The translations under genes were made by a program, and so were the position numbers. A stretch of DNA of 64,000 bases from a virus: IMG/VR virus record IMGVR_UViG_3300032116_000057, positions 40,455 to 104,454 of that record; one strand, written 5' to 3'. The notes under the pieces were generated by a model. The model saw only the letters and a program-made list of their open reading frames with translations. It did not search any database and was not told the origin of the DNA. How positions within the stretch are numbered: position 1 is the first letter of the stretch; each line of letters begins with the position of its first letter. This document shows positions 8,873 to 59,691 of this stretch, one piece after another.

Positions 8873-11683
8873 GTAAATACACTGCGTATATTCGCAGCAC
8901 TAATTGGTCTCTATAAAAGAATAACATTTGCCCTAGGAGTAGGGTTTTTTTTCGTATTGCTAACTATTTCTTCTGCCTACGCTGAAGGGGAAGGGTCAAC
9001 AACCACAGGAGAAACAACCCAACAGCCCACACAAAGTCCAGAACCATCTCCTAGTCCTTCCACAACGTCTTCGAGCGAAGCGACTCCAACTCCGACTCCA
9101 ACTCCAGAACCCTCGCCTGCAACTTCGGACCCTCAAACTTCCAGTACGACATATTCCACTGAGGCGCCTCCATCCCAGACGAGTGGGACTGCGTCAACTT
9201 CTGGTTCATCCGAGCCAAGTCCGACTCCTGCGCCTTCACCTTCGCCTGAGCCCAGCGCAACTCCTCTTCCAACATCAGAACCCGCTCCATCTTCTGAACC
9301 GAGTCCAACTCCAACACCGACTCCAGAGACTTCACCTTCCGTAACAACGGCTCCTTCGTCTGAACCCAGCCCACAACCCAGCCCGCAAGAAACGACAACA
9401 ACGGTAGCCACAACTCCAGAAACATCAACGGTTACCTCCGTTCAAAATAAAATTGAGAGCGCAACTGTAACATTAAACACGGCTGTTCAAGCCGCTAGTT
9501 CAGAACAACAATCTGCTGCCGCTACTCCGGTTGCAGAAGCTCAGACAGCTATTGCAGCCGCCGAATCTGCCACCGTAATAGCTGTAGCAGCGCAAACTGC
9601 CGTTGATTCTCAAACTGTTGTGGTGTCTACGGCAGCAAGTAACGTGTCTACTGCTCAAGAGCAATTGGCTACTCTTCAGGGTGCCCCAGAAAACACAAAA
9701 GTTTTTACAACAGATGGGTATGTAGCTCCGGTAGCTCCTGAAAGCCCTACGGTAACTACTACTACTCTTCCTATTATGTATGATGCTGCAACTAAGATTC
9801 AAACACCATTTGACATTAAAATGGGTGATACCGTCTATAACGGTCAAGGAACAGCTAGCCAGATCTATGTAACTTCTAAAGCAACTATTACCTTTGGTAC
9901 TGGCGACTTTAACTGGTGGGATTTTCCTAATGGTCCAAGCATCTCAGTGTTTGCAAGTGACTACCAGAATGCTGGTCCTGGGGCATCGACTGTAGTCACT
10001 ACTACAGAAACTACTCTGGAAGTTGATTGGACCCTCCATAAGTTTGCAGATCCAAATGGACCGTTAACAAATGTTAATTGGAAGATGACGGTAAACCCTG
10101 AAACTGGGGAATGGACAGGAATCGGTAAGATTTCTGGAAACACTACTGGCTTGTGGAATGGGCCTAGAACAGGAGTAAGAGAAGCTGTAGGAGAACCAGT
10201 TAAACCAATGACTGCCGTAACTTCTGAGACCATTGCTGCAGCTGAAATTGTTGTAACAACAGCTCAAACTACTTTATCAACTGAGCAAACAACCCTAACT
10301 ACACTAACTGAAACAGCTACTGCAACTATTGCTGCTGCGGATCAGTTGGCAACTGTTGCTGTTGAGAAGGTTGCGACTGCAGTAACTGCGCTCTCAGCAC
10401 CTGTAACTTCGCCAGAGACTCAACAGCCGTCTGTGTCGCCAAGCGAACCGACTCCTGAACCTGCTCCCTCTCCAACTCCTCCTGCTCAAGAATCTTCTCA
10501 ATCAACAAATCCTCAGAGCCCTCAGCCATCCACTCCTCAACAATCTGACGCGCCTTCGCAATCTCAAGATTCCACAACAACTCAAACTGATGCTGGTCCA
10601 TCTACTTCTCCTTCTGACACTGGCAATTCTGGCACTGACACGGCTCCAGAACCTCAACCCGAGACTCAACCTCAACCAACTTCTCCTGAGCCTCAGCCTG
10701 AGCCAACCTCTCCATCAGAACCTGAGTCTGAGGATCCTCCAGTAACTCCTGAATCGCCGTCTGAACCTCAGGACGAACCTGTAGAACCAGAGCCAACTCC
10801 TCAAGAGCCTGAACAAGAACCTTCTGAAGAGGAAACACAAAATCCGGAAGAGGTTGATCCGGTTGATACTCCAGATGACAATCCTTCAGACACTCCAGAC
10901 GATTCAGAGAATCCTCAAGAAGATTCTGAAGCTTCCAATGATCAGTCCACAGAAACGGATTCATCTACTGAGTCGCCCACAGAAGAACAATCAGAGCCCA
11001 CAGAATCCCCAACAGATACGGAAGATACTTCATCGGAATCCGAAGAAACTTCGGAGCCTCCATTGGAAGATGGCGCAGCTGAGGAAGAAGAATCACAACA
11101 GCAGTCACAAGAGCAAGAGCAAGAAAATCAGTCCACAGAATCATCCTCTAATACTACACCTTCTGTAGAAGAAGCTGTCACAGAGGCGCTAGCAGATGGA
11201 AAACTAACGGAAGCTGAGAAAGAGGTTGTTGCTGAAGCTTTAATTGAGGCTGCTAATGGCGGTCCAGTATCTGCTGAAGCCATAAAAGAAGCAGGTATTG
11301 AATATAAAGATCTTCCTGCCGAGACTCCAGTTGAGGTTAGGAAGGATGAAAACGGTAACGAAGTTATAATTACAGCAGACGTTGCTGCGGCTCTCGTTTT
11401 ATTAGAGAACCCATCTGAATTAGTTGGCGCAATATTTAGCGACCCCGGGGAAGCACTACAAGCACTTGGAAGTATCGGTGCTGATATGTCCCCTGAAGAA
11501 AGAGAAGAAGCAGAAAAAATGGTAGTTGCTGCCGTCATTGCAGGCAATGCTGCAATCAATGCTGTAGCAGTTGCTGGCGCTGCTGGAGGAACCACCACCG
11601 GTGGTAGCTCTAGTGGTGGAGGAAGTTCTGGAGGCGGAGGAGCCTCTGGAGAATCAAAAGGATATAGGAGACGCAAACCTTGA
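8873..11683 (+). CDS. large Pro/Ser/Thr/Glu-rich (mucin-like) surface protein with signal peptide, central NIDO-like domain and C-terminal hydrophobic segment
   Basis: Track start is TTG 8957, but the frame is open from 8864 and the signal peptide KRITFALGVGFFFVLLTISSAYA lies mostly upstream of 8957; AGGAG at 8862-8866 suggests a start near 8873. Confidence 0.75.
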   Translation, partial: VNTLRIFAALIGLYKRITFALGVGFFFVLLTISSAYAEGEGSTTTGETTQQPTQSPEPSPSPSTTSSSEATPTPTPTPEPSPATSDPQTSSTTYSTEAPPSQTSGTASTSGSSEPSPTPAPSPSPEPSATPLPTSEPAPSSEPSPTPTPTPETSPSVTTAPSSEPSPQPSPQETTTTVATTPETSTVTSVQNKIESATVTLNTAVQAASSEQQSAAATPVAEAQTAIAAAESATVIAVAAQTAVDSQTVVVSTAASNVSTAQEQLATLQGAPENTKVFTTDGYVAPVAPESPTVTTTTLPIMYDAATKIQTPFDIKMGDTVYNGQGTASQIYVTSKATITFGTGDFNWWDFPNGPSISVFASDYQNAGPGASTVVTTTETTLEVDWTLHKFADPNGPLTNVNWKMTVNPETGEWTGIGKISGNTTGLWNGPRTGVREAVGEPVKPMTAVTSETIAAAEIVVTTAQTTLSTEQTTLTTLTETATATIAAADQLATVAVEKVATAVTALSAPVTSPETQQPSVSPSEPTPEPAPSPTPPAQESSQSTNPQSPQPSTPQQSDAPSQSQDSTTTQTDAGPSTSPSDTGNSGTDTAPEPQPETQPQPTSPEPQPEPTSPSEPESEDPPVTPESPSEPQDEPVEPEPTPQEPEQEPSEEETQNPEEVDPVDTPDDNPSDTPDDSENPQEDSEASNDQSTETDSSTESPTEEQSEPTESPTDTEDTSSESEETSEPPLEDGAAEEEESQQQSQEQEQENQSTESSSNTTPSVEEAVTEALADGKLTEAEKEVVAEALIEAANGGPVSAEAIKEAGIEYKDLPAETPVEVRKDENGNEVIITADVAAALVLLENPSELVGAIFSDPGEALQALGSIGADMSPEEREEAEKMVVAAVIAGNAAINAVAVAGAAGGTTTGGSSSGGGSSGGGGASGESKGYRRRKP

Positions 11684-39160: not shown

Positions 39161-41010
39161 TGACTTGGCTGCTCACCTTCTTTTTCAACGTTAGCAGTGC
39201 GTACCTTCTTCTTCTTATCAGACCAGGCTTGTTGTACTTTCTCGTCTGTATCGCTAATAACTGGGTACCTAATAAACTGAAGGTCTACAATAGAAAACAT
39301 AGGGATCATTTGTTCGCTAAATATAACGTGGTTTACGTTTAAAGACGCAAGCGATACCTTGTACCTCATATTAGGGTGGATTTTTAACCATACCGGAGTT
39401 CCAGTTATATAACCAAAGTCAGCAGTTTTAGGTTTTGAACCACCCTCGCTATAGCTTAGTAAAGTTCCAGAGCTTTCTTTTGGATCGCCGTTTACTACTC
39501 TATATAAAAACTCTAGATCATACTCGGTGCCTCTATGTAGAATTCCTTCAACTTCTTGCGCAGTTAACCCTCTAGGATAGTTTTTTGAGTAGGGTTGATT
39601 CTTACCCTTTAATGGAGCAAGCTCAGTCATGTCTACTACTCGGTTTAGGTATAGCTGAACACTCACGCTAAAGCTTCCACCAATATAGTTGGCTGGATCG
39701 TGTGTTGCCAATATCCAGTCAATAGAGGTATCCATTTGAGTACCATAAGAGACGTAGGTAGGGTTGTATATAAACCTAAATCCCCAAGGTTTTTTTGTAT
39801 CCGCATTTAATGCTTTAGCTGTTTGCGTATCTTGAAAGAGCATTCCTAAGACACCTTTTTCTGAAGTCTCTTCATATAAAAGATCCTTTTTACCTGGAAC
39901 AACAAAACTTGCTCTACGAGTTGTTTTAGTATCTTTTAGGTATTGATCTTTTATTTTTGCCCAGTGGGACGGACTTCTAGTGTAAAAATGGTTGGGGGGA
40001 TTAGTCCTAGAGTAGTCTTTAAAATCTTCTGGTCTTCCCCTATCAAAATCAGGTTCTTCTGAAGGTCCACCATCTTCAGCTTCTTTACAGGTGTTGTTCC
40101 TAATTTCAGTTAATCTTGTTCTTGCCACTCTTCCGTGGTCTACCCCGTCGGGTCCAGGCACTCCCACCCTACTGTCATAGCCAATATAAATAGTTTGCAC
40201 ATTTTGTTTTAATACTGCGGGGCTCATATTGTCAGCATCTAGGGGGTAATATCGTAAAGACCAATTTACAGCGTTTGGTTTGATATCCAATTCTTTAATT
40301 ACAGCAGCCCATCGATTGGGGGTAGAGCACCTATCTAATGCAATTAGTTCTTCCTGGTACGCCTCTTGTTTTACAATTTTTGGTATAGATGTGGTTTTGG
40401 ATATAGCGTTAGTAAAACTTATGCCAGTAACATATGTACTACTGTGGGGAAGAACTTCTCTATCTTCGTTTGAATTGTTTTCATTTCCATTTTTCTTTAG
40501 TTTTACATAAATATCTGGTTGAAGAAACACATTTGATTTTTTCGCTCTTACGGTAAATACAAAAAGTCTTTTTGTTGTTTCTGCGTCTGTAGTTACACCA
40601 CTGCTGCTTACGCTGTAGCCTGGGTCAGTGTAGTAAGGGAAATCACCAACAGTTTTTCTTTTAAATAATTTTTCGTGCTTTCTCCACTCAACTTCGCTAA
40701 TTTCAAAGTTTGCTGCTTGGGCATTCCTATAAGAGTCTAAAACATATACCTCTAGATCATCGTCTCTGGTTAAAGGGGTTGCAGGACTTGTGGGATTAAG
40801 TTGAAAAGCGTTTTGTTTCCAAACCCTCACTACATAGTAAATAGTATTGCCTTTGTACACGCTTTTATTATCTGTGTTGACTGGGACTGCAACGGCAGTT
40901 TGACCCCCAGCCTCATAGCAATCTACGGTCCAAAAGTATGCTGGATACCCAGCTTGATATACAGAGTTTGCATCCTGTACGGAAGAAAGGTTCTTATATG
41001 TCCAAGCCAT
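39157..41010 (-). CDS. tail tube initiator-like baseplate protein with N-terminal extension
   Basis: GFRFIYNPTYV and a tube-like C-terminus; lies between tape measure and LysM genes. Confidence 0.55.
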   Translation of the reverse strand: MAWTYKNLSSVQDANSVYQAGYPAYFWTVDCYEAGGQTAVAVPVNTDNKSVYKGNTIYYVVRVWKQNAFQLNPTSPATPLTRDDDLEVYVLDSYRNAQAANFEISEVEWRKHEKLFKRKTVGDFPYYTDPGYSVSSSGVTTDAETTKRLFVFTVRAKKSNVFLQPDIYVKLKKNGNENNSNEDREVLPHSSTYVTGISFTNAISKTTSIPKIVKQEAYQEELIALDRCSTPNRWAAVIKELDIKPNAVNWSLRYYPLDADNMSPAVLKQNVQTIYIGYDSRVGVPGPDGVDHGRVARTRLTEIRNNTCKEAEDGGPSEEPDFDRGRPEDFKDYSRTNPPNHFYTRSPSHWAKIKDQYLKDTKTTRRASFVVPGKKDLLYEETSEKGVLGMLFQDTQTAKALNADTKKPWGFRFIYNPTYVSYGTQMDTSIDWILATHDPANYIGGSFSVSVQLYLNRVVDMTELAPLKGKNQPYSKNYPRGLTAQEVEGILHRGTEYDLEFLYRVVNGDPKESSGTLLSYSEGGSKPKTADFGYITGTPVWLKIHPNMRYKVSLASLNVNHVIFSEQMIPMFSIVDLQFIRYPVISDTDEKVQQAWSDKKKKVRTANVEKEGEQPSQ

Positions 41011-49334: not shown

Positions 49335-49455
49335 TTTTTTTCTTCACTTTCTTAGGGAGCTTCTTACCCTTAGGGGTTTCACCCCCCCACTTTTCAGCCA
49401 TTTTAGGGTCATTAGCATACATCCATTTACGCTGAGCTTCGGATTTAAAGGGCAT
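49318..49455 (-). CDS. 45-aa basic peptide; not in ORF track
   Basis: MPFKSEAQRKWMYANDPKMAEKW...KKLPKKVKKK; TAATG-coupled. Confidence 0.7.
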   Translation of the reverse strand: MPFKSEAQRKWMYANDPKMAEKWGGETPKGKKLPKKVKKKSGKKR

Positions 49456-50072
49456 TAAATACCTGGCACAGTTCCTTCAGGATCCTCATAGAATGAGTAT
49501 CTATCTCTAGGACCAAATGGAGTGTAGGTCGCGTACTCTGCAAACTGTGGGTCATTAATAAGCTCTTCAGCGTTTACCTGGTAGCAGACTACAGAAAATA
49601 AGGTGTAGTCATTAGTAATAATCCCCTTAGGTAGTACCTGTCTAGGGCTAAATACCTGGTTCTTAAATACAACGCGATCTCTTAAAAAAGCATCTGGGTT
49701 TGTAGGTAGGGCTCTTAATTCTGGGATAAGCAACGTCTCACTAGTTGATAGCGAGCTGCCTTCTGCTATATCCATATTTATTGTTATATTTAAAACGTCG
49801 GTGTTGTAGAAACCACGGTCACTAGGCACCGTACTGCCTTGTGTCAAGGTAGCGTTAATAACGGGAATGTGGTATGGGCCAACCCAACGACGTCCCCCAG
49901 TATTAGCTCCAACGTCGTATATGGGGTCAACAACAGTAGCAACAGGGTCATAAAGCCACCACTCTAAGTCATAGCCTACGGTACGTACTATTTCTTTTGT
50001 GGTGCCCTTAATAATCGATCCACGCTCATGATTGATCGTAAATCTGGAACCTTCGACTCGTTCTCCACGCAT
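49455..50072 (-). CDS. head-tail connector / head closure-like protein
   Basis: Beta-rich (RDRVVFKNQVF); position before neck genes. Confidence 0.5.
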   Translation of the reverse strand: MRGERVEGSRFTINHERGSIIKGTTKEIVRTVGYDLEWWLYDPVATVVDPIYDVGANTGGRRWVGPYHIPVINATLTQGSTVPSDRGFYNTDVLNITINMDIAEGSSLSTSETLLIPELRALPTNPDAFLRDRVVFKNQVFSPRQVLPKGIITNDYTLFSVVCYQVNAEELINDPQFAEYATYTPFGPRDRYSFYEDPEGTVPGI

Positions 50073-50119: not shown

Positions 50120-50854
50120 CTACTTCTTTTGATGATCAATAAAAGGGTTATCCCAGGCATCCCTACCCCTAAAATATTTTCTTCCGGCTGAGTGGGGCTT
50201 TAGCATGTCCTCTTGTTGCCGTTGCCTAGCTAATTCGGTCCCGGCTTTGTACTCTAACTCAATCTCTTCAGGGGTAAACAGTTCGTCTGCATATTTGATG
50301 GTAAAACGATCTGCAAAATATCTAGGTATTGGTATAAAAGCTCCAATAGGATCTCCTGCCTTTATAGTCACATAGATATTAGGTTTGGTGACTTTTAAAT
50401 TAAAGGTAAAATCACGACTAAGATTATCAGTCTCTATTACCCCAGTCATATGCATAAGCCCGTGTTGAGGAAAATTAGGTGGGGTTATAGTCATTAAATT
50501 TATTCCTGGCGGAGTTCGATAATGCCATAAGTTTTGAATTGTTAATATTCCAGAACCAAAATGACCATCAAATCGTTGACATCTAGCGTCTTCATGTTTT
50601 TGATTTATTATAAGGCCATGTATAGAGTCGTCCCCATTCCAATGAACAGTTACGTCTCGTTCAGCTCTTACTATAAACCCATAAACATTTCCTATAGACA
50701 GCGGAAGGCAATAGTAAAAGTGAGAAGTAAACCAATCTCTTTTTTTAATTTCTGTCAGAGGTATTAAAAGCTTATCAATATCCTTTTTGTCTATCCCTGG
50801 TTGTGGTACGACAACTAACGTTTGTTTTGGAACAAAAGTGTCTTTATTAATCAT
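50120..50854 (-). CDS. DUF6065-like protein
   Basis: YYCLPLSIGNVYGF, HFGSGILT, RTPPG.NL...PPN, GVIETD, FTFN. Confidence 0.7.
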   Translation of the reverse strand: MINKDTFVPKQTLVVVPQPGIDKKDIDKLLIPLTEIKKRDWFTSHFYYCLPLSIGNVYGFIVRAERDVTVHWNGDDSIHGLIINQKHEDARCQRFDGHFGSGILTIQNLWHYRTPPGINLMTITPPNFPQHGLMHMTGVIETDNLSRDFTFNLKVTKPNIYVTIKAGDPIGAFIPIPRYFADRFTIKYADELFTPEEIELEYKAGTELARQRQQEDMLKPHSAGRKYFRGRDAWDNPFIDHQKK

Positions 50855-51740
50855 GAGTTGGCACCCCTATTTTGCTTATGTTTAAAGGAACTATATACCC
50901 GGTTAATTTACAAAACTCATCTATAGTTTTTTTAGGGACACCATAAAAACCTTCAAGCTCTCCGCGTATAAATTTGTTTCCCCTAGAGGTATCATTTAAC
51001 ATGTCTAATTTGGGGTGGCCATCATTCCACGGCTTTACGTTACTTTGTATAGCTATTCTATCTTGCGAGTAAAAATGAAAAAATACCGGGTTATTAAAAA
51101 AAACTATTGGGTAGCCGTGATAAAAAGCCCTAATACTTAAACACATCTCATCACAAAAAAAATCTAATTCTGGGTCTTGAGGCACTTTTAACAAAAACTC
51201 TTTTTCAGAAAAAACGCAAGCTCCATGTATATAGTGGTGTTCTGTTAAGTCTTCGGCTTCTTTATGACTAGGCCAATTTCTAAACTGGGCACCTTCTAAT
51301 ACGGCGTGGGACATACGTAAAACCGGTCCTGTTTCTCTGTTTCCATTGGAATATAGTCTATACATCGCGGGGTATGCGCTCAAAACTACTGGGGAATTGA
51401 ATTTTTCTTTTGCTTTTTTATATACATTTATTATGTCGACATCCCAATTTTTTACAGAAAACATGTGTGCGTCTATCTGAAGAACATAATCGTAATCGCT
51501 AAACATGGCGGTTGATAAAGATCGCGCCCAAGTTACGCCGTAAGTTTCTTTTGGATTTACTTTTAGATATCTTAAATTTAAAGTAGGTATAAATGAAAGA
51601 TCTGGATGCTCGTAGTCTTGAGATACTACAGAGAATAAGATACGATCTTTATACTTAGCGTCTTCATAAAAAGAACGAACAGTGTGTTCTAATTCTATTT
51701 CTCTATATGAAGGGACAGAAATAAGTATTTTTTCATGCAT
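50847..51740 (-). CDS. GT60 / Gnt1-like (Skp1-hydroxyproline) N-acetylglucosaminyltransferase
   Basis: ISVPSYRE, GVTWAR, LQIDAHM..WD (DxH), VLSAYP, VPQDP..FFCDE, IRAF..G match the PF11397 GlcNAc family pattern. Confidence 0.8.
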   Translation of the reverse strand: MHEKILISVPSYREIELEHTVRSFYEDAKYKDRILFSVVSQDYEHPDLSFIPTLNLRYLKVNPKETYGVTWARSLSTAMFSDYDYVLQIDAHMFSVKNWDVDIINVYKKAKEKFNSPVVLSAYPAMYRLYSNGNRETGPVLRMSHAVLEGAQFRNWPSHKEAEDLTEHHYIHGACVFSEKEFLLKVPQDPELDFFCDEMCLSIRAFYHGYPIVFFNNPVFFHFYSQDRIAIQSNVKPWNDGHPKLDMLNDTSRGNKFIRGELEGFYGVPKKTIDEFCKLTGYIVPLNISKIGVPTHD

Positions 51741-52300
51741 TAGTACAACGCATACTCTTTAGATTTATCAAAAGTCCAAAAAGAAGCAATCGTGTACCTA
51801 GTGCTATCTTCTATTTTAGTTACGCCATGAAGATGTTCAGGATCACCAGGATGTATAGCTAAGTTTCCAGCTTTTGGTATAACCTCAAAATTATGCTCCG
51901 GGTAGTACGTATGACCCCCAGAATAGTTATCGTTTAAATAAATTATCGCTCCAAATACCCTATGCTCAAAACCTCTATGTTCTGTATTAGTCATGTCGTC
52001 TGCGTGAGGGGGTTGCTCCATTCCGGGAAACCAACGAATAATTTGAGTAAGATCTGCGTAAACTTCTTTGTCTAGGCCGTACTCAAACATAATAGCGTTT
52101 TTAACTTTTATGGTGGCTTCGGCAACAATATCTGCAACTTTAGGGTCTATGTTTTTTCTAAGGTTGGGAAGTCCTAAAGCCCTATTAGACCAAAAATCAT
52201 TGCCCGCACCCTCCCAAGTATCTACTTTAGATACGGTGGTTACTACGTATTCGCAATCTTCTTTAGATAAAAAATTTGATACTACTTTTGGATTAAACAT
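51740..52300 (-). CDS. prolyl-4-hydroxylase-like 2OG-Fe(II) dioxygenase
   Basis: PPHAD, IIYLNDNYSGG, PKAG, HGVT..RYT (HxD..H..R). Confidence 0.88.
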   Translation of the reverse strand: MFNPKVVSNFLSKEDCEYVVTTVSKVDTWEGAGNDFWSNRALGLPNLRKNIDPKVADIVAEATIKVKNAIMFEYGLDKEVYADLTQIIRWFPGMEQPPHADDMTNTEHRGFEHRVFGAIIYLNDNYSGGHTYYPEHNFEVIPKAGNLAIHPGDPEHLHGVTKIEDSTRYTIASFWTFDKSKEYALY

Positions 52301-52310
52301 TTTAGCCCTC

Positions 52311-52571
52311 TTAATCTTCCGTTTTAGACCATTTTCCTACGGGACATTCCGCAAGTTTTAATTTAGTTTTTAGGTGCATTAAACAACCGCATTTTTTACA
52401 CTGGTTTGTAGATTTTGTAAGAAATTCGCAGCCCCTACAAATGTTAAACCTAAGCTCAGCTATAGCGTCGGTAGTGTAATTATCCTTATTTAAAAGTTGC
52501 CAAGGTCTAGTTTCTCCTTGAGCTTCTTTCATATCTTGGAGTTTTTGCTTATATTCTTTCCATGCAGACAT
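52311..52571 (-). CDS. Cys-rich small protein (DUF6171-like)
   Basis: RFNICRGC..QCKKCGC..K....CPVGKW. Confidence 0.7.
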   Translation of the reverse strand: MSAWKEYKQKLQDMKEAQGETRPWQLLNKDNYTTDAIAELRFNICRGCEFLTKSTNQCKKCGCLMHLKTKLKLAECPVGKWSKTED

Positions 52572-52589
52572 GCGTATAGTGTACCCTAC

Positions 52590-53036
52590 TTAATTGGTGT
52601 GGGGTAAAAAGGCGGTTCCGTCATGCACCCAACCAATAGAAACTTCTTGGGAGCAGGGAAATACATGGGCATCAGAGGATAAACCAGCCTGAATCCTATA
52701 AAAATCTTCTGGATCCATATCCTCTTTAACATAGGTAATTGTTCCTACTACATCCTCATCAACAACCACAGCTACCCTACAGATACCTTCTGAAACGCTC
52801 TCAACTTCTGTAGCCGGATATAGCATTTCAGAGTCAGAATAAAAAATTCCATCCTTATATGTGTACGTTTTGTCCACGTTAGGGTAACGGTCGATATTTA
52901 TGACTGATGGATCAGAGCTAAATGCCGCAATCCATCTGTCCCAACTTCTTGTACTAATATCGCTGGGTTGATCAGGTAGGTCCATAGTTAAGAACACATC
53001 GCCTTCAACAACAAATGCAAATCGTTTTGTTAGCAA
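52590..53036 (-). CDS. hypothetical protein with internal duplication, possible fibre chaperone
   Basis: Two similar halves (FAFVVEGDV..AAFSSDP / VAVVVDEDV..AGLSSDA); coupled to the adhesin. Confidence 0.55.
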   Translation of the reverse strand: MLTKRFAFVVEGDVFLTMDLPDQPSDISTRSWDRWIAAFSSDPSVINIDRYPNVDKTYTYKDGIFYSDSEMLYPATEVESVSEGICRVAVVVDEDVVGTITYVKEDMDPEDFYRIQAGLSSDAHVFPCSQEVSIGWVHDGTAFLPHTN

Positions 53037-55096
53037 ACGATGCCTCCCAAGTTAGTACAGTTACCTGCACAGCTTACGGTACCCAGTCTAGCGCACTCTC
53101 CGCCAGGGCCATAACCGTAGACTTCACAGATATCTCCTTGGTTAGGTACACAACCTGGAGGTGGAGGTGGTGGTGGAGGCGGAGGCGGAGGTGGTGGAGG
53201 CGGAGGTGTTGACGGACAGCCAACAAACTCACAAAATCCTAAGAAACACTCATAGCAAGTCGGACAGCTCACATTACTACATGGATCCGCTGGTGGAGGT
53301 GGTGGAGGTGGAGGTGGTGGAGGTGGAGGTGGCGGTGGCGGTGGAGGCGGTGGTGGAGGTGGCGTACAACTATCCTGACATACGTAAGAGTATCCAGATA
53401 TGCTTCCACAACAATTATAGTTTGCTATACGCAAGGCATTACCGCAACACTCAGCTCGGTATACAGTTCCTGAAGGTATTTCATCACACAAACCGCAGCA
53501 ACCGCAATCGTTACACCCACAGGGAGCAGGTGGAGGGGGTGGTGGTGGCGGAGGTGGTGGCGGTGGAGTGCTACAACCAAGACCAACATAGTATGGGCTA
53601 CCATAGTTTGTAGTTCCATCCGAACACTTAGGCCAATAAGTTTGATAGTTAGTGCATCCCGGGCAAGATCCATCAGGGCAGCTTCCGCTACCTACAGGTC
53701 CTTGAGTACTTCCATATTGAGTGCCACAAGTTAATGTAGGGCAGCTGCTTCCAGAGCCGCCACTACCCCCGCAACCAGAAACGTTTACAGCAATACAATT
53801 ACCATAGCTCGTAAGGGTAGCTGCAGGACAACCATCAGTAGTATAGACCCCATCACAGAGTCTTCTATAACCGGTGTAGTTTCCTACGTAGGAATCTTCC
53901 CCGTTACATGTAGGTTGTGTAAACGTATAGGTTTCACAAGATCCACATTGAACAGTACAAGTACGAGCAGTAGCAAAACTACCAGTTTCAGTATAACTAT
54001 TGTTACAGTTATCAGTTCTAGTCCTAGTAGTAGCTGTACCGGATTCAGTGTTGTTAACGCAGTTACCGCTCCAAGTAATACCGCTGTATGACCATGCTGA
54101 GTACGAAGTGATAGTACATCCTCCTGGCCCTGGTGGCGGAGGAGGAGGTGGCGGTGGAGGTGGAGGCGGTGGTGGCGGAGGTGGTGGTGGAGCTACATAT
54201 CCGCATACCACCGAGTTAGATTCTACTAATTTGTCTAATATAAATTCATTATTAGTAACTCCTGCAGAACTATATCGAAGGTACCCAAGACGTTGACGTC
54301 TATTTACTCCGCTGCAATACAACTCATTGAGAAATGTACCGACTTGATAAAAAGATGAAGTCGCTTCGGTAGTTGCGGGAGACGTTATGTAAATATTGTC
54401 TGCAGTGCTACCCTGTTGATCAGAACTTAAAGTTTTAATTAACCCAATATAAGTACCTTGAACAGGAGATGGGGGAGTGACTATTAGCGGCACTGATAAT
54501 TGAGTAGTTGCTAAAAGATCAGAATAAGCGATTATCCTTAACGTTCCGTCTAAAGATTTTACAGAAATGCTATTTATAGACGTGTAGGCAGAACTACTAT
54601 AATTTATTACCGCGGTATATACCGTTGATCTTGTTCCCGACACATTTCTAATAACATCAATAGATGATAGGTATACGCCATCAGACAACGAGTATCTAGG
54701 TACTGCTGCCCACCAATTATTAGAGTCTGTTACCCAAAAAGCTAACCCGACACCGCCGCTAGTACTTACCCTAGCGTCAAAACTAGAGCTATATAAATCT
54801 GCTACGGTTAATGCATTGCTGCTGGGGCTTTCATCACATGATGCTTGTTGAGACCCATTTACTTTCCAAACACCACCACCAAAAGACAACCATGTTTGTC
54901 CACTTTCAGCCGTTCCCAAAGATGATACGGAAGACGCTCTGCTAAAGGTGTCCTCTATTCTAGAAGCAAACCATTGACGCCATTGACCATTAACTTTAAC
55001 GTAGGCAGCAGTAACGGTTTTCCATTGACCGCTTATTTTAACTGAAAGACGAGACGCCGTCCTCCAAGTACCGCCAACCTTCGCTTGACCTGGCAT
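53030..55096 (-). CDS. putative fibre adhesin with four polyproline tracts and Cys-rich modules
   Basis: N-terminal triple (V)KVxGxW motif typical of fibre-tip adhesins; lectin-like beta domain; P20, P13, P24, P17. Confidence 0.75.
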   Translation of the reverse strand: MPGQAKVGGTWRTASRLSVKISGQWKTVTAAYVKVNGQWRQWFASRIEDTFSRASSVSSLGTAESGQTWLSFGGGVWKVNGSQQASCDESPSSNALTVADLYSSSFDARVSTSGGVGLAFWVTDSNNWWAAVPRYSLSDGVYLSSIDVIRNVSGTRSTVYTAVINYSSSAYTSINSISVKSLDGTLRIIAYSDLLATTQLSVPLIVTPPSPVQGTYIGLIKTLSSDQQGSTADNIYITSPATTEATSSFYQVGTFLNELYCSGVNRRQRLGYLRYSSAGVTNNEFILDKLVESNSVVCGYVAPPPPPPPPPPPPPPPPPPPPGPGGCTITSYSAWSYSGITWSGNCVNNTESGTATTRTRTDNCNNSYTETGSFATARTCTVQCGSCETYTFTQPTCNGEDSYVGNYTGYRRLCDGVYTTDGCPAATLTSYGNCIAVNVSGCGGSGGSGSSCPTLTCGTQYGSTQGPVGSGSCPDGSCPGCTNYQTYWPKCSDGTTNYGSPYYVGLGCSTPPPPPPPPPPPPPAPCGCNDCGCCGLCDEIPSGTVYRAECCGNALRIANYNCCGSISGYSYVCQDSCTPPPPPPPPPPPPPPPPPPPPPPPPADPCSNVSCPTCYECFLGFCEFVGCPSTPPPPPPPPPPPPPPPPPGCVPNQGDICEVYGYGPGGECARLGTVSCAGNCTNLGGIVC
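53156..54190. repeat. four (NGG)n coding tracts encoding polyproline on the minus strand
   Basis: 53156-53206, 53291-53362, 53528-53566, 54131-54190. Confidence 0.95.
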
Positions 55097-55906: not shown

Positions 55907-56248
55907 TTACGCTACCTCAGAACCGAATGCCTGGAATGTTAAGTTAGCTGTAGAAGCTACTACAGTAATGGTATCTGAAGCAGATAGTGTAACTCCCAGA
56001 GTAAACGTGGTTGTAGTGTTAGCTGGTACAGAGGTGTCATAAGCAAGATACTGCTTATTATCTAAGGCAGCGTTATCCTCACGAATAGCGATGCGGTAGG
56101 TTGCAGCAGACGTACCTCGGTTGCAGATTACGATGGTGGATACGACAGCCGCACTACCTGCGGTTGAAGGTACTGCGTATAGCTGACTACCTCCAGATAC
56201 GTTAGCTGCCGGGGCTACTTGCCCTAGGATCTTGTATGTTGTTGCCAA
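55907..56248 (-). CDS. virion structural protein
   Basis: YKILGQVAP...LYAVP...STIVICNR...FQAFGSE; beta-rich. Confidence 0.55.
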   Translation of the reverse strand: MATTYKILGQVAPAANVSGGSQLYAVPSTAGSAAVVSTIVICNRGTSAATYRIAIREDNAALDNKQYLAYDTSVPANTTTTFTLGVTLSASDTITVVASTANLTFQAFGSEVA

Positions 56249-57305
56249 GGGATTGCTCCTTCGAATAAAACGCTAGATTAGCTGTAAGGCGTTGGTCATT
56301 TGGGTTCAATTCTACGGCCTTAGCTCCATATTTAACGGCTTTATCAAAATCTCCTAGGTTGTAATAGGAGATGGCTGCATAGTCCCAGGGGGCCGATCCC
56401 CAGGCAAATTCTTCACATAGATAGTCCAAAGGCTTAGCCTCAATATCTATGGCCTTAGTTGCTGCTTGATAGCAGGCCGTCCACATACTTCTCTCATAGT
56501 AATACTGCGCTAGCTCTACTAACGCTTCCCGTCTTCCGGGATCTTCATTATGGGCTTTAAGCAACCACTGCTCTCGCTCATCAGAGTTTTCTGACATTTT
56601 TGCAATATAGCGCATAGATGCCGCACGTTCTGGTCTCCACACTGCTTTTGGAAGACTTAGGTGCCTTTTAAACTCAGCGATAGCCTCTTCAAATTGTCCA
56701 TAGAAAAATAACTCTCTAGCATAATAAAAAGCATTTCTATCGTCATATGGGTCTTCTTTTACTGATTGAGCTAATAGTGGAAAATATTGTGATCTGGGTT
56801 TTTCATTATCCGGATAGTGCTGAATTTCTAATCCTATCCAAGTCTGTACTTCGTCTATGCGGTCTGCAGTCAACACTTCGTGTACAGGATGTTTCCAACG
56901 ATATCCATGTCTAGCGTGAATTTTATCTCCACCGTATTCTAATCCTGGCGACCCATCCGGATTCCAACTCCAAGTATATTTATATCTAGGGCGGGTTGTT
57001 TCTTTTGAAATGTTGTCCAAGTATTTACGCCAACCGGACACCAACACTTCATCCATGTCTAAGGCTATGCAGAAATCTATATCGTCTGGAATTAATGAAA
57101 GCGAAGCGTTTCTAGCATCATCAAATCTCCAAGGTTTTATGGAGATAGGAATTACGCTTATGCCAAGAGACCGACCAAGATCAACGGTGCCATCGCTAGA
57201 GCCAGTATCAGCAATAAGGAGATAATCTGCTTCTTTTGCGGATTCATACCACCTCTTTACAAAGTGCTCTTCGTTTAAAGCTATTGTATATACGGCTATT
57301 TTCAT
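56202..57305 (-). CDS. GT2 glycosyltransferase with C-terminal TPRs
   Basis: IALNEE, DTGSSDGT, FDDARNASL, LDMDE, W..PVHE; TPR helices. Confidence 0.9.
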   Translation of the reverse strand: MKIAVYTIALNEEHFVKRWYESAKEADYLLIADTGSSDGTVDLGRSLGISVIPISIKPWRFDDARNASLSLIPDDIDFCIALDMDEVLVSGWRKYLDNISKETTRPRYKYTWSWNPDGSPGLEYGGDKIHARHGYRWKHPVHEVLTADRIDEVQTWIGLEIQHYPDNEKPRSQYFPLLAQSVKEDPYDDRNAFYYARELFFYGQFEEAIAEFKRHLSLPKAVWRPERAASMRYIAKMSENSDEREQWLLKAHNEDPGRREALVELAQYYYERSMWTACYQAATKAIDIEAKPLDYLCEEFAWGSAPWDYAAISYYNLGDFDKAVKYGAKAVELNPNDQRLTANLAFYSKEQSLGNNIQDPRASSPGS

Positions 57306-59325: not shown

Positions 59326-59691
59326 TTAAACTCCTAGTACATTTCCGCCGTTAAGAGTAATACCGCCGCCATAAACGCTATTTGGTGCTCCACCATCTAC
59401 GTTGTCATTTTCTGGACCTGTAGGTCCTGTAGCTCCCGTAGGTCCAGGCTGAGTTGATACAGGCCCTGTCGGTCCTGTAGGTCCTGTTACTCCAGGTCCT
59501 GTCGGTCCTGTAGGACCAGTTATACCAGGTCCTGTTGGTCCTGTCGGCCCGACTGGTCCTGTAGGTCCTAAATCTCCTTGAACACCTTCTGAAATAAGAA
59601 GGCGCCAAACAGAGCCGTTCCAATACCAGGTCGTCTCACCAACAGTGAACTGTTGATCAAGAACGGGGGAGTCTGGAAAATCTATGGCCAT
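59326..59691 (-). CDS. short collagen-like virion protein
   Basis: [17 protein letters not shown] followed by GPT repeats. Confidence 0.8.

Follow-up and report, generated by a model that had tools for sequence, protein, structure and literature searches.

Paramecium bursaria chlorella virus 1 (PBCV-1) encodes a collagen-type prolyl hydroxylase (vCPH, PDB 5c5t), and its genome also encodes Pro-rich repeats; the prolyl 4-hydroxylase (P4H) and the virus's own Pro-rich repeat proteins were described by Eriksson et al. 1999, as cited in PMC9301287. Prolyl-4-hydroxylase-like genes are among the commonest auxiliary metabolic genes of aquatic viromes, and a survey from 2022 calls their viral use 'cryptic' (PMC9301287). 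Here, we analysed a gene cassette of a tailed phage in which a prolyl-hydroxylase-type 2-oxoglutarate (2OG)-Fe(II) oxygenase, a GT60-type glycosyltransferase (GT) and a DUF6065 protein are encoded behind a fibre-like gene with long polyproline tracts. The cassette enzymes probably decorate this fibre-like protein, as judged from gene content and comparison with related phages. The stretch analysed, hereafter the window, is the last 64 kb (positions 40,455 to 104,454) of the 104,454-bp virus record IMGVR_UViG_3300032116_000057, for which CheckV gives a completeness of 100%.

The locus differs from PBCV-1 in several respects. The host of PBCV-1 is a eukaryotic alga, whereas the window belongs to a tailed phage. 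Here the gene next to the enzyme encodes the candidate substrate, whose Pro tracts vary together with the enzyme; they are pure polyproline between Cys knots, in contrast to the (PAPK)n repeats of PBCV-1, and GT60 and DUF6065 genes are coupled to the enzyme. The Skp1 pathway of Dictyostelium and Toxoplasma, in which PhyA acts before Gnt1, likewise pairs a cytoplasmic prolyl-hydroxylase-type enzyme with a GT60 transferase (PMC6939170). However, that pathway modifies one proline of Skp1, whereas the phage has no Skp1 target and its candidate is a polyproline rod with dozens of sites. Moreover, the window hydroxylase gave its best structural matches to P3H1 and vCPH, ahead of PHD2, and GT60 occurs in related phages also without a hydroxylase. 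Mimivirus L230 (PDB 6ax6) is a virus-encoded hydroxylase and glycosyltransferase acting on a viral fibre protein, but it is a fused bifunctional enzyme directed to Lys of collagen, whereas the window has separate genes, an enzyme of the prolyl type and a polyproline, non-collagen candidate target.

Extensins have Ser/Thr-(Pro)n tracts forming polyproline type II (PPII) rods, as the tracts of the window may do, and the P4H-1 of Chlamydomonas (PDB 2jig/3gze) falls into the same structural group as the window oxygenase (Z 16.8 to 3gze). In extensins, the hydroxyproline (Hyp) carries arabinose and galactose, which GTs of other families attach, and the extensin system is secretory whereas that of the window is cytoplasmic. 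Among phages, Iyer, Abhiman, de Souza and Aravind described in 2010 a tandem array of dioxygenases in Synechococcus phage Syn9, accompanied by a protein that has a dUTPase fold and a conserved cysteine (PMC2938197). The window similarly places a classical 2OG oxygenase beside a dUTPase-fold protein with a conserved Cys (C49 of DUF6065), and JmjC genes occur in its relatives. In contrast, the Syn9 array contains ten oxygenases plus halogenases and was proposed for secondary-metabolite synthesis rather than virion tailoring (PMC2938197), whereas the window phage has one oxygenase and no halogenases, and a Pro-tract fibre gene lies directly upstream.

A candidate tailoring cassette behind a polyproline fibre-like gene

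The phage is myovirus-like, with genes for a tail sheath, baseplate wedge, tape-measure/peptidase and collagen-like fibres; replication genes (DNA polymerase, helicases, primase and a UvsX-like recombinase) are also present in the window. All six minus-strand open reading frames (ORFs) that a first-pass annotation had placed at this site were recovered (Table 1), and its reading of the individual genes largely stood. The stop codon of the oxygenase gene overlaps the start of the GT gene as TAATG, and the 74 prolines counted in four tracts of the fibre-like gene were again 74 on recounting. The dioxygenase is borne out as a prolyl-hydroxylase type by a PF13640 match together with top 50 structural matches that are all prolyl hydroxylases, the GT60 call by a PF11397 match far above the curated cut-off and an invariant QxDxH motif, and the DUF6065-like gene by its match to PF19541.

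Table 1. Genes of the cassette and its flanks, with positions in the window
Feature	Position	Strand	Remarks
205-aa conserved flanking gene	49455..50072	-	downstream edge of the variable slot, outside the cassette
DUF6065, 244 aa	50120..50854	-	PF19541, E 6.1e-37
GT60-type glycosyltransferase, 297 aa	50847..51740	-	PF11397 GlcNAc (N-acetylglucosamine); translationally coupled to the oxygenase gene
2OG-Fe(II) oxygenase, 186 aa	51740..52300	-	PF13640 2OG-FeII_Oxy_3, E 2.2e-8
DUF6171, 86 aa	52311..52571	-	PF19668, E 1.2e-7
148-aa protein (p148)	52590..53036	-	conserved small family between the Pro-rich gene and DUF6171
688-aa candidate substrate, fibre/adhesin-like	53030..55096	-	Pro tracts, Cys-rich modules, N-terminal PHROG match

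The GT gene shares 8 bases with the DUF6065 gene, and PF13640 and PF11397 each find one gene in the whole genome. Gene order and Pro tracts are retained in near-identical contigs, and the cassette is therefore no assembly artefact. In the phage isolate database, the region had no DNA match and DUF6065 no match; GT60 reached only ~23-25% identity, to four jumbo Xanthomonas/Stenotrophomonas phages, and the oxygenase at most 29% over most of its length (Synechococcus phages) or up to 35% over half of it. These searches indicate that no cultured relative is close to this phage.

The 688-aa protein contains 98 Pro, of which the 74 lie in uninterrupted tracts of 20, 13, 24 and 17 (residues 303-322, 511-523, 579-602 and 631-647). 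The tract codons are a mixture of CCA, CCT and CCG, so the tracts are no simple DNA repeat. Its 45 Cys are distributed over the modules following the tracts (18, 12, 6 and 6) and the N-terminal part (3), and its C-terminus is a Cys knot. Thr directly precedes three of the four tracts (CST-Pn, CT-Pn, ST-Pn); with 13-24 Pro per tract, the sequence may to this extent resemble the Ser/Thr-(Pro)n repeats of extensins. The N-terminal 45 aa match phrog_36019 and phrog_25859. Atlas structure leads for the N-terminal part pointed to laminin-G/3-keto-disaccharide-hydrolase-like folds at a TM score of ~0.5, below evidence level, and a lectin-like beta-sandwich is possible there. In L008:3-638 and L160:1-1191 (related viral loci are cited by L numbers), the final tract of the Pro-tract protein is followed by a Hint/intein-like domain (CLVGSTLVSTPSGYVKAEDIVVGSVV...), unlike the Cys-knot end of the window protein.

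The oxygenase belongs to the prolyl hydroxylase group

Residues H99 and D101 (HxD), H158 and R168 are invariant in 19 homologues of the oxygenase, R168 being the basic residue for the 2OG C5 carboxylate. The basic 2OG-binding residue of collagen P4H (C-P4H)-type enzymes is Lys. A profile built from the 19 homologues was searched against solved structures and matched only peptidyl prolyl/lysyl hydroxylases, namely B. anthracis P4H (E 7e-8), P3H1 (3e-7), Chlamydomonas P4H (8e-6), PBCV-1 vCPH (1e-3) and, weakly, mimivirus L230 (8e-3). The AlphaFold model of the oxygenase (predicted local distance difference test, pLDDT, 92.6) was best aligned by VIA-align to the catalytic domain of human P3H1, with Z 20.3 and a root-mean-square deviation of 2.3 Å over 178 residues, and Foldseek matched it to P3H1 with E 1e-11. 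The next structural matches were PBCV-1 vCPH (Z 17.2) and P. putida PPHD, Chlamydomonas P4H, PHD2 and B. anthracis P4H (Z 16-17); the top 50 listed VIA-align chains, Z 20.3 to 15.6, are all prolyl hydroxylases. By family and modelled fold, the enzyme is a prolyl-hydroxylase-type 2OG-Fe(II) oxygenase. The label 'P4H' is provisional, and the product may be 3-Hyp or 4-Hyp, because the prolyl 3-hydroxylase P3H1 heads the structural matches and 4-hydroxylases come after it. A specific PhyA/PHD likeness, as suggested by the first-pass annotation, is not favoured by these matches. The best matches are of collagen type (P3H1, vCPH, B. anthracis P4H and Chlamydomonas P4H), whereas PHD2 scored slightly lower (Z 16.6) and did not appear among the PDB profile matches, PhyA itself not being in the compared set.

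Hydroxylase genes follow Pro-repeat proteins in related phages

The oxygenase profile was used to fetch 80 viral loci, mostly at 51-63% identity. A same-strand order recurs in them: Pro-repeat protein, ~140-aa p148-like protein, DUF6171, optional GT or other enzymes, hydroxylase and DUF6065. Among the 37 loci with at least 2.5 kb upstream of the hydroxylase, 35 encode within 3.5 kb a protein whose Pro content reaches 40% or more over a 30-aa stretch. These repeats vary widely, from polyproline to (PPPIIAT)n, (PPVT)n, (PPVV)n and (TPPPA/T)n; most of the proteins end in a small Cys knot, some contain an FN3 domain and two have a Hint-like end. In five loci (L136:5920-7117, L161, L167, L153 and L192), Pro-repeat ORFs, such as (PPPIIAT)n and (PPVT)n, have no Met and start with GTG right after a stop, ~20 nucleotides behind a ~238-aa ORF in another frame; by their sequence, they might be a frameshifted extension of that ORF or simply start at GTG.

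Because this sample was selected through the hydroxylase, two further samples were drawn, one anchored on the tail sheath and one on DUF6171. The pooled samples were scored at a threshold of at least 33% Pro, since inspection showed (PFFP)n and (VTP)n repeats at 37%. A hydroxylase was present in the slot of 19 of the 30 loci with a Pro repeat (absent from 11) and in none of the 20 loci without one (Fisher p = 2e-6, or 1.5e-5 minus near-duplicates, both figures ignoring kinship). At the 40% threshold, the association was non-significant in the DUF6171-anchored sample (p = 0.16); the four cases of hydroxylase without a Pro-rich protein at this threshold all had (PFFP)n or (VTP)n repeats with 37% Pro. 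The proposed co-occurrence of the hydroxylase with Pro-rich fibre-region genes thus holds in relatives (35/37; 19/30 versus 0/20).

The closest sheath relatives, L324 and L383 (77% identity), L328 (67%) and L336 (65%), provide a natural 'knock-out'. Their homologue of the 688-aa protein shares the N-terminal 130 residues and the Cys-rich modules and has no Pro tracts. At the fibre site they carry only DUF6171, with no p148, hydroxylase, GT60 or DUF6065, whereas the upstream collagen-like fibres and a gene for a GT2 glycosyltransferase fused to TPR repeats (GT2-TPR) are retained. Since relatives without the Pro tracts also have no hydroxylase, the Pro tracts are favoured as the hydroxylation target. 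Particular to the window are its pure polyproline rods, set between Cys knots, the presence of just one hydroxylase, the GT60 coupled to it and relatives devoid of both tracts and cassette. The analysis directly shows which genes are present, to what family and fold the enzymes belong and how the genes co-vary among relatives. In L324:5215-6984 and L336:5321-7066, Cys-rich repeats (e.g. CDQSQVTSTSNPPSNQCCSGVSQGGGG, repeated) are placed in the middle of the N-terminal domain and not appended after it.

Viral contigs were also scanned for (CCN)14. Among the 80 loci obtained, a P4H lies beside a polyproline ORF in L223 only; because these loci are short, the scan says little about polyproline without hydroxylase in viruses generally. 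L223:4528-5929 encodes a membrane-anchored P4H-like protein followed by a small membrane protein with a 26-residue polyproline run. The contig is probably from a eukaryotic virus, and it represents an independent pairing of P4H with a polyproline protein.

GT60 transferases occur with and without hydroxylases

The GT matched PF11397 with E 7.1e-28 and 98.5 bits against a cut-off of 21, covering profile positions 98-294 of 352, and scored 84.5 bits in the genome search. Its QxDxH motif (Q88, D90, H92) is invariant in 10 homologues, and a sequence search among solved structures found no relative. From the family, a uridine diphosphate (UDP)-GlcNAc donor and an alpha-linkage to a polypeptide hydroxyl are predicted. 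GT60 includes the Hyp-specific Gnt1 and the polypeptide alpha-GlcNAc transferase of Trypanosoma cruzi (PMC6939170). Family membership therefore does not fix Hyp as the acceptor. The T. cruzi enzyme is one that we take to be Thr-directed.

The first-pass annotation had made the GT60 step dependent on prior hydroxylation, and the distribution of the genes speaks against this. In the same slot, GT60 genes without any hydroxylase lie behind fibre proteins with (TP)n repeats in L422, Thr-rich proteins in L436 and L450 and (YYAAPQ)n repeats in L445. In another viral group, 73 of the 76 GT60 loci have no nearby hydroxylase-type oxygenase (14 loci contain DUF6065, often adjoining GT60), and the same applies to all 28 bacterial GT60 loci. 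Conversely, GT60 is present in only 24 of the 80 hydroxylase-anchored loci, and L117 combines polyPro13 tracts and a hydroxylase without GT60. In quick trees, hydroxylase-linked and hydroxylase-free GT60s interleave, and the slot-associated ones fall into at least four lineages and occupy three different positions in the slot. The window's own clade (window, L008 and L185) is hydroxylase-linked in 3/3 cases, and a second clade of six (L120 type plus L431) always is. Ser/Thr therefore appears at least as likely an acceptor as Hyp, because slot GT60s occur without hydroxylase behind Thr-rich or (TP)n proteins and 73/76 other viral loci have none; for the window's own small clade, a Hyp acceptor is possible.

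DUF6065 and the small neighbours of the fibre-like gene

The model of DUF6065 (pLDDT 80.9) shows a dUTPase-superfamily barrel followed by C-terminal helices. VIA-align, run alongside Foldseek, gave Z 10.5-8.0 to dUTPases (10.5 for that of equine infectious anaemia virus) and then a drop towards 4. Out of 48,161 chains, the 20 best are without exception members of the dUTPase/dCTP deaminase superfamily, and herpesvirus pp71 and ORF10 are among the structural matches. A sequence search among solved structures gave no usable relative. C49 is invariant in 28 sequences, and DUF6065 is present in 65/80 hydroxylase-anchored loci. On its modelled fold, DUF6065 is a member of the dUTPase superfamily and a recurrent partner of phage P4H-like and GT60 genes.

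DUF6171 has six Cys that are invariant in the alignment (CxxC...CxxCxC...CP). It occurs in 76/80 hydroxylase-anchored loci and is retained in relatives without a hydroxylase. Because it is still found behind fibre homologues in such loci, the partner of DUF6171 seems, from gene content, to be the Cys-rich fibre protein and not the hydroxylase. The 148-aa protein had no Pfam or PHROG match, and Jackhmmer started from it reached 47 of the 67 ORFs at the equivalent position in relatives. Atlas leads to tail fibre assembly proteins were sub-threshold and below evidence level; from its position, p148 may be a fibre assembly chaperone.

Enzymes vary at the fibre site

The slot extends from DUF6171 to the conserved 205-aa gene, a homologue of which follows it in relatives with and without the cassette. 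Relatives carry varied enzymes in this slot. Between DUF6171 and the hydroxylase, L119 (6504-9999) encodes a radical SAM-SPASM enzyme, two GT61 and a cupin; a UDP-glucose dehydrogenase is found in the slot of L132 and a JmjC protein in that of L136, and some relatives have extra PF13640 copies. Judged by the predicted families, this gene content is the set expected for enzymes acting on adjacent low-complexity fibre tracts. L377:800-3920 and L359:1126-4181 each encode a fibre-region protein that has a Cys knot and long (TP)n tracts; behind it come a sulfotransferase-like gene (PF03567, at E 1.4e-3 short of the cut-off) and DUF6171. Both loci also encode an adenosine 5'-phosphosulfate (APS) kinase (PF01583, E 4e-16) fused to a nucleotidyltransferase-like part, and L377 alone has a PF13640 oxygenase. 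This predicted gene set suggests sulfation of a phage fibre protein.

Other features of the window

The GT2-TPR gene (56202-57305, minus strand; phrog_13126, E 4e-118) adjoins the collagen-like fibre genes and is kept in relatives without the hydroxylase cassette. Its product may be an enzyme that glycosylates fibres separately from the cassette. An exact copy of the first 100 bases of the record lies at 99986-100085 (window ~59532-59631), inside a 121-aa collagen-like gene, whereas the first 200 bases do not; the recurrence may be a collagen-repeat coincidence or an assembly join. A 908-aa ORF at window positions 8957-11683 (plus strand) is the sole large plus-strand ORF amid minus-strand genes. 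It is extremely rich in Ser, Thr, Pro and Glu (TPTPTPEPSP and SPSPEPS runs) and matches no Pfam family; a Gly/Ser tail and KGYRRRKP form its C-terminus. Upstream of it the frame is open from ~8870, and the in-frame ITFALGVGFFFVLLTISSAYA/EG resembles a signal peptide with an AxA site; this stretch has no ATG, GTG or TTG before the signal-peptide-like residues.

A fibre-tailoring cassette and the alternatives

We propose that the genes form a fibre-tailoring cassette, in which the hydroxylase would act on the polyproline rods and GT60 would add a sugar to the same 688-aa protein; going by sequences and models, the chances that this holds as a whole seem evenly balanced. The 688-aa protein would be the distal fibre or adhesin of the myovirus-like phage, its PPII rods spacing the small Cys-rich modules. 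The cytoplasmic oxygenase would hydroxylate rod prolines before virion assembly, and the coupled GT60 would add an N-acetylhexosamine-type sugar on Ser/Thr or Hyp, with DUF6065 as a putative accessory protein. A hot spot at which related phages swap protein-tailoring enzymes would lie between the fibre gene and the genes for neck and sheath. We infer the substrate, the order of the steps, the sugar and the effect on the virion from these comparisons; the modification may stiffen the rods and depend on oxygen. Of the earlier proposal that phage enzymes decorate a polyproline virion protein, the hydroxylation half thus has comparative support, but the Skp1-like GlcNAc step on Hyp is not the best-supported version.

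Several observations count against fibre tailoring. The virion location of the 688-aa protein is deduced from gene position and a short N-terminal match. The compared loci come from related phages with conserved synteny, so the counts are non-independent. Pro-repeat proteins are common without a nearby hydroxylase (~10/18 hydroxylase-free loci), and the association is therefore one-directional, with no hydroxylase where there is no Pro repeat. According to their PDB titles, the structures of P. putida PPHD and B. anthracis P4H have EF-Tu as binding partner or as subject of study, and bacterial P4H-like enzymes can have targets other than a fibre protein. The nucleotide-enzyme fold of DUF6065 is left unexplained by fibre tailoring.

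Three other explanations were weighed. The strict two-step pathway would place 4-hydroxyproline in the polyproline tracts and then GlcNAc on Hyp by GT60, as with PhyA and Gnt1, to give an extensin-like virion glycoprotein. The translational coupling of the oxygenase and GT60 genes through TAATG fits it, as do the two GT60 clades that are hydroxylase-linked throughout, and in pure Pro tracts Hyp would far outnumber any other hydroxyl acceptor; Gnt1, the only known Hyp-GlcNAc transferase, belongs to GT60 (PMC6939170). However, the same-slot GT60s without hydroxylase behind Thr-rich or (TP)n proteins, the interleaved tree, the 73/76 other viral and 28/28 bacterial loci without an oxygenase, the restriction of GT60 to 24/80 hydroxylase loci with its absence from L117, and a hydroxylase with its best matches in the collagen-type P3H1 and vCPH, ahead of PHD2, make this pathway unlikely. 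Alternatively, the enzymes may act elsewhere, on the collagen-like fibres (GPT/GPQ triplets), on a host protein such as EF-Tu or on a peptide or secondary metabolite. Three collagen-like genes in the genome are potential targets, and for B. anthracis P4H, which is the best match by sequence, PDB titles point to collagen-like peptides and EF-Tu as targets. Cyanophage dioxygenase arrays with a dUTPase-fold protein have been read as secondary-metabolite pathways (PMC2938197), and P4HA-type genes commonly figure among the auxiliary metabolic genes of viruses, with a 'cryptic' role (PMC9301287). Against this, the presence of the cassette follows that of Pro tracts in the neighbouring gene, its location is within the fibre/neck structural block, and many hydroxylase loci have no collagen-like ORF within reach. 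Because close relatives keep the collagen-like fibres and GT2-TPR without a hydroxylase, we rank these fibres below the Pro tracts as substrate, and a target outside the Pro-tract protein seems quite unlikely.

A nucleic-acid or nucleotide pathway, in which the oxygenase, the dUTPase-fold protein and the GT would make a hydroxylated, glycosylated base like base J or glucosyl-hydroxymethylcytosine, would account for the dUTPase/dCTP-deaminase fold of DUF6065. Phages combine oxygenases and GTs for DNA hypermodification, and the PHROG families matching the oxygenase are labelled 'DNA endonuclease'. Nevertheless, profile and structure place the oxygenase in the prolyl/lysyl hydroxylase group, with no TET/JBP or AlkB among the top 50 chains; the cassette genes lie in the fibre block, apart from the replication and nucleotide genes of the window, and dUTPase folds are reused as non-catalytic modules, such as the herpesvirus pp71 and ORF10 among the matches. 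This pathway is highly improbable.

Implications for viral prolyl hydroxylases

A literature search turned up no report of phages carrying Hyp or Hyp-glycans, in keeping with the first-pass annotation, which knew of none; however, the pairing of phage dioxygenases with a dUTPase-fold protein has been known since 2010 (PMC2938197). That a phage virion carries a true hydroxyproline glycoprotein, with polyproline rods hydroxylated and Hyp capped with GlcNAc by GT60, is rather unlikely. If true, such a protein would be a prokaryotic-virus counterpart of extensins and of the Skp1 modification, receptor-binding fibres would depend on oxygen and 2OG, and the abundant 'cryptic' P4HA genes of aquatic viromes would be explained.

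The swap-site of the hydroxylase behind a Pro-repeat fibre-region gene offers a concrete, testable candidate substrate for viral P4H-like genes, which would, if the proposal is true, move from 'host metabolism' to 'virion decoration'. Confirmation would give bacteriophage particles their first known hydroxyproline and possibly also their first Hyp- or mucin-type glycan. Hydroxylases, GT60/GT61, sulfotransferase-like proteins with APS kinase, radical SAM enzymes and JmjC proteins would then form a modular toolkit by which these phages diversify their host-recognition proteins without sequence change.

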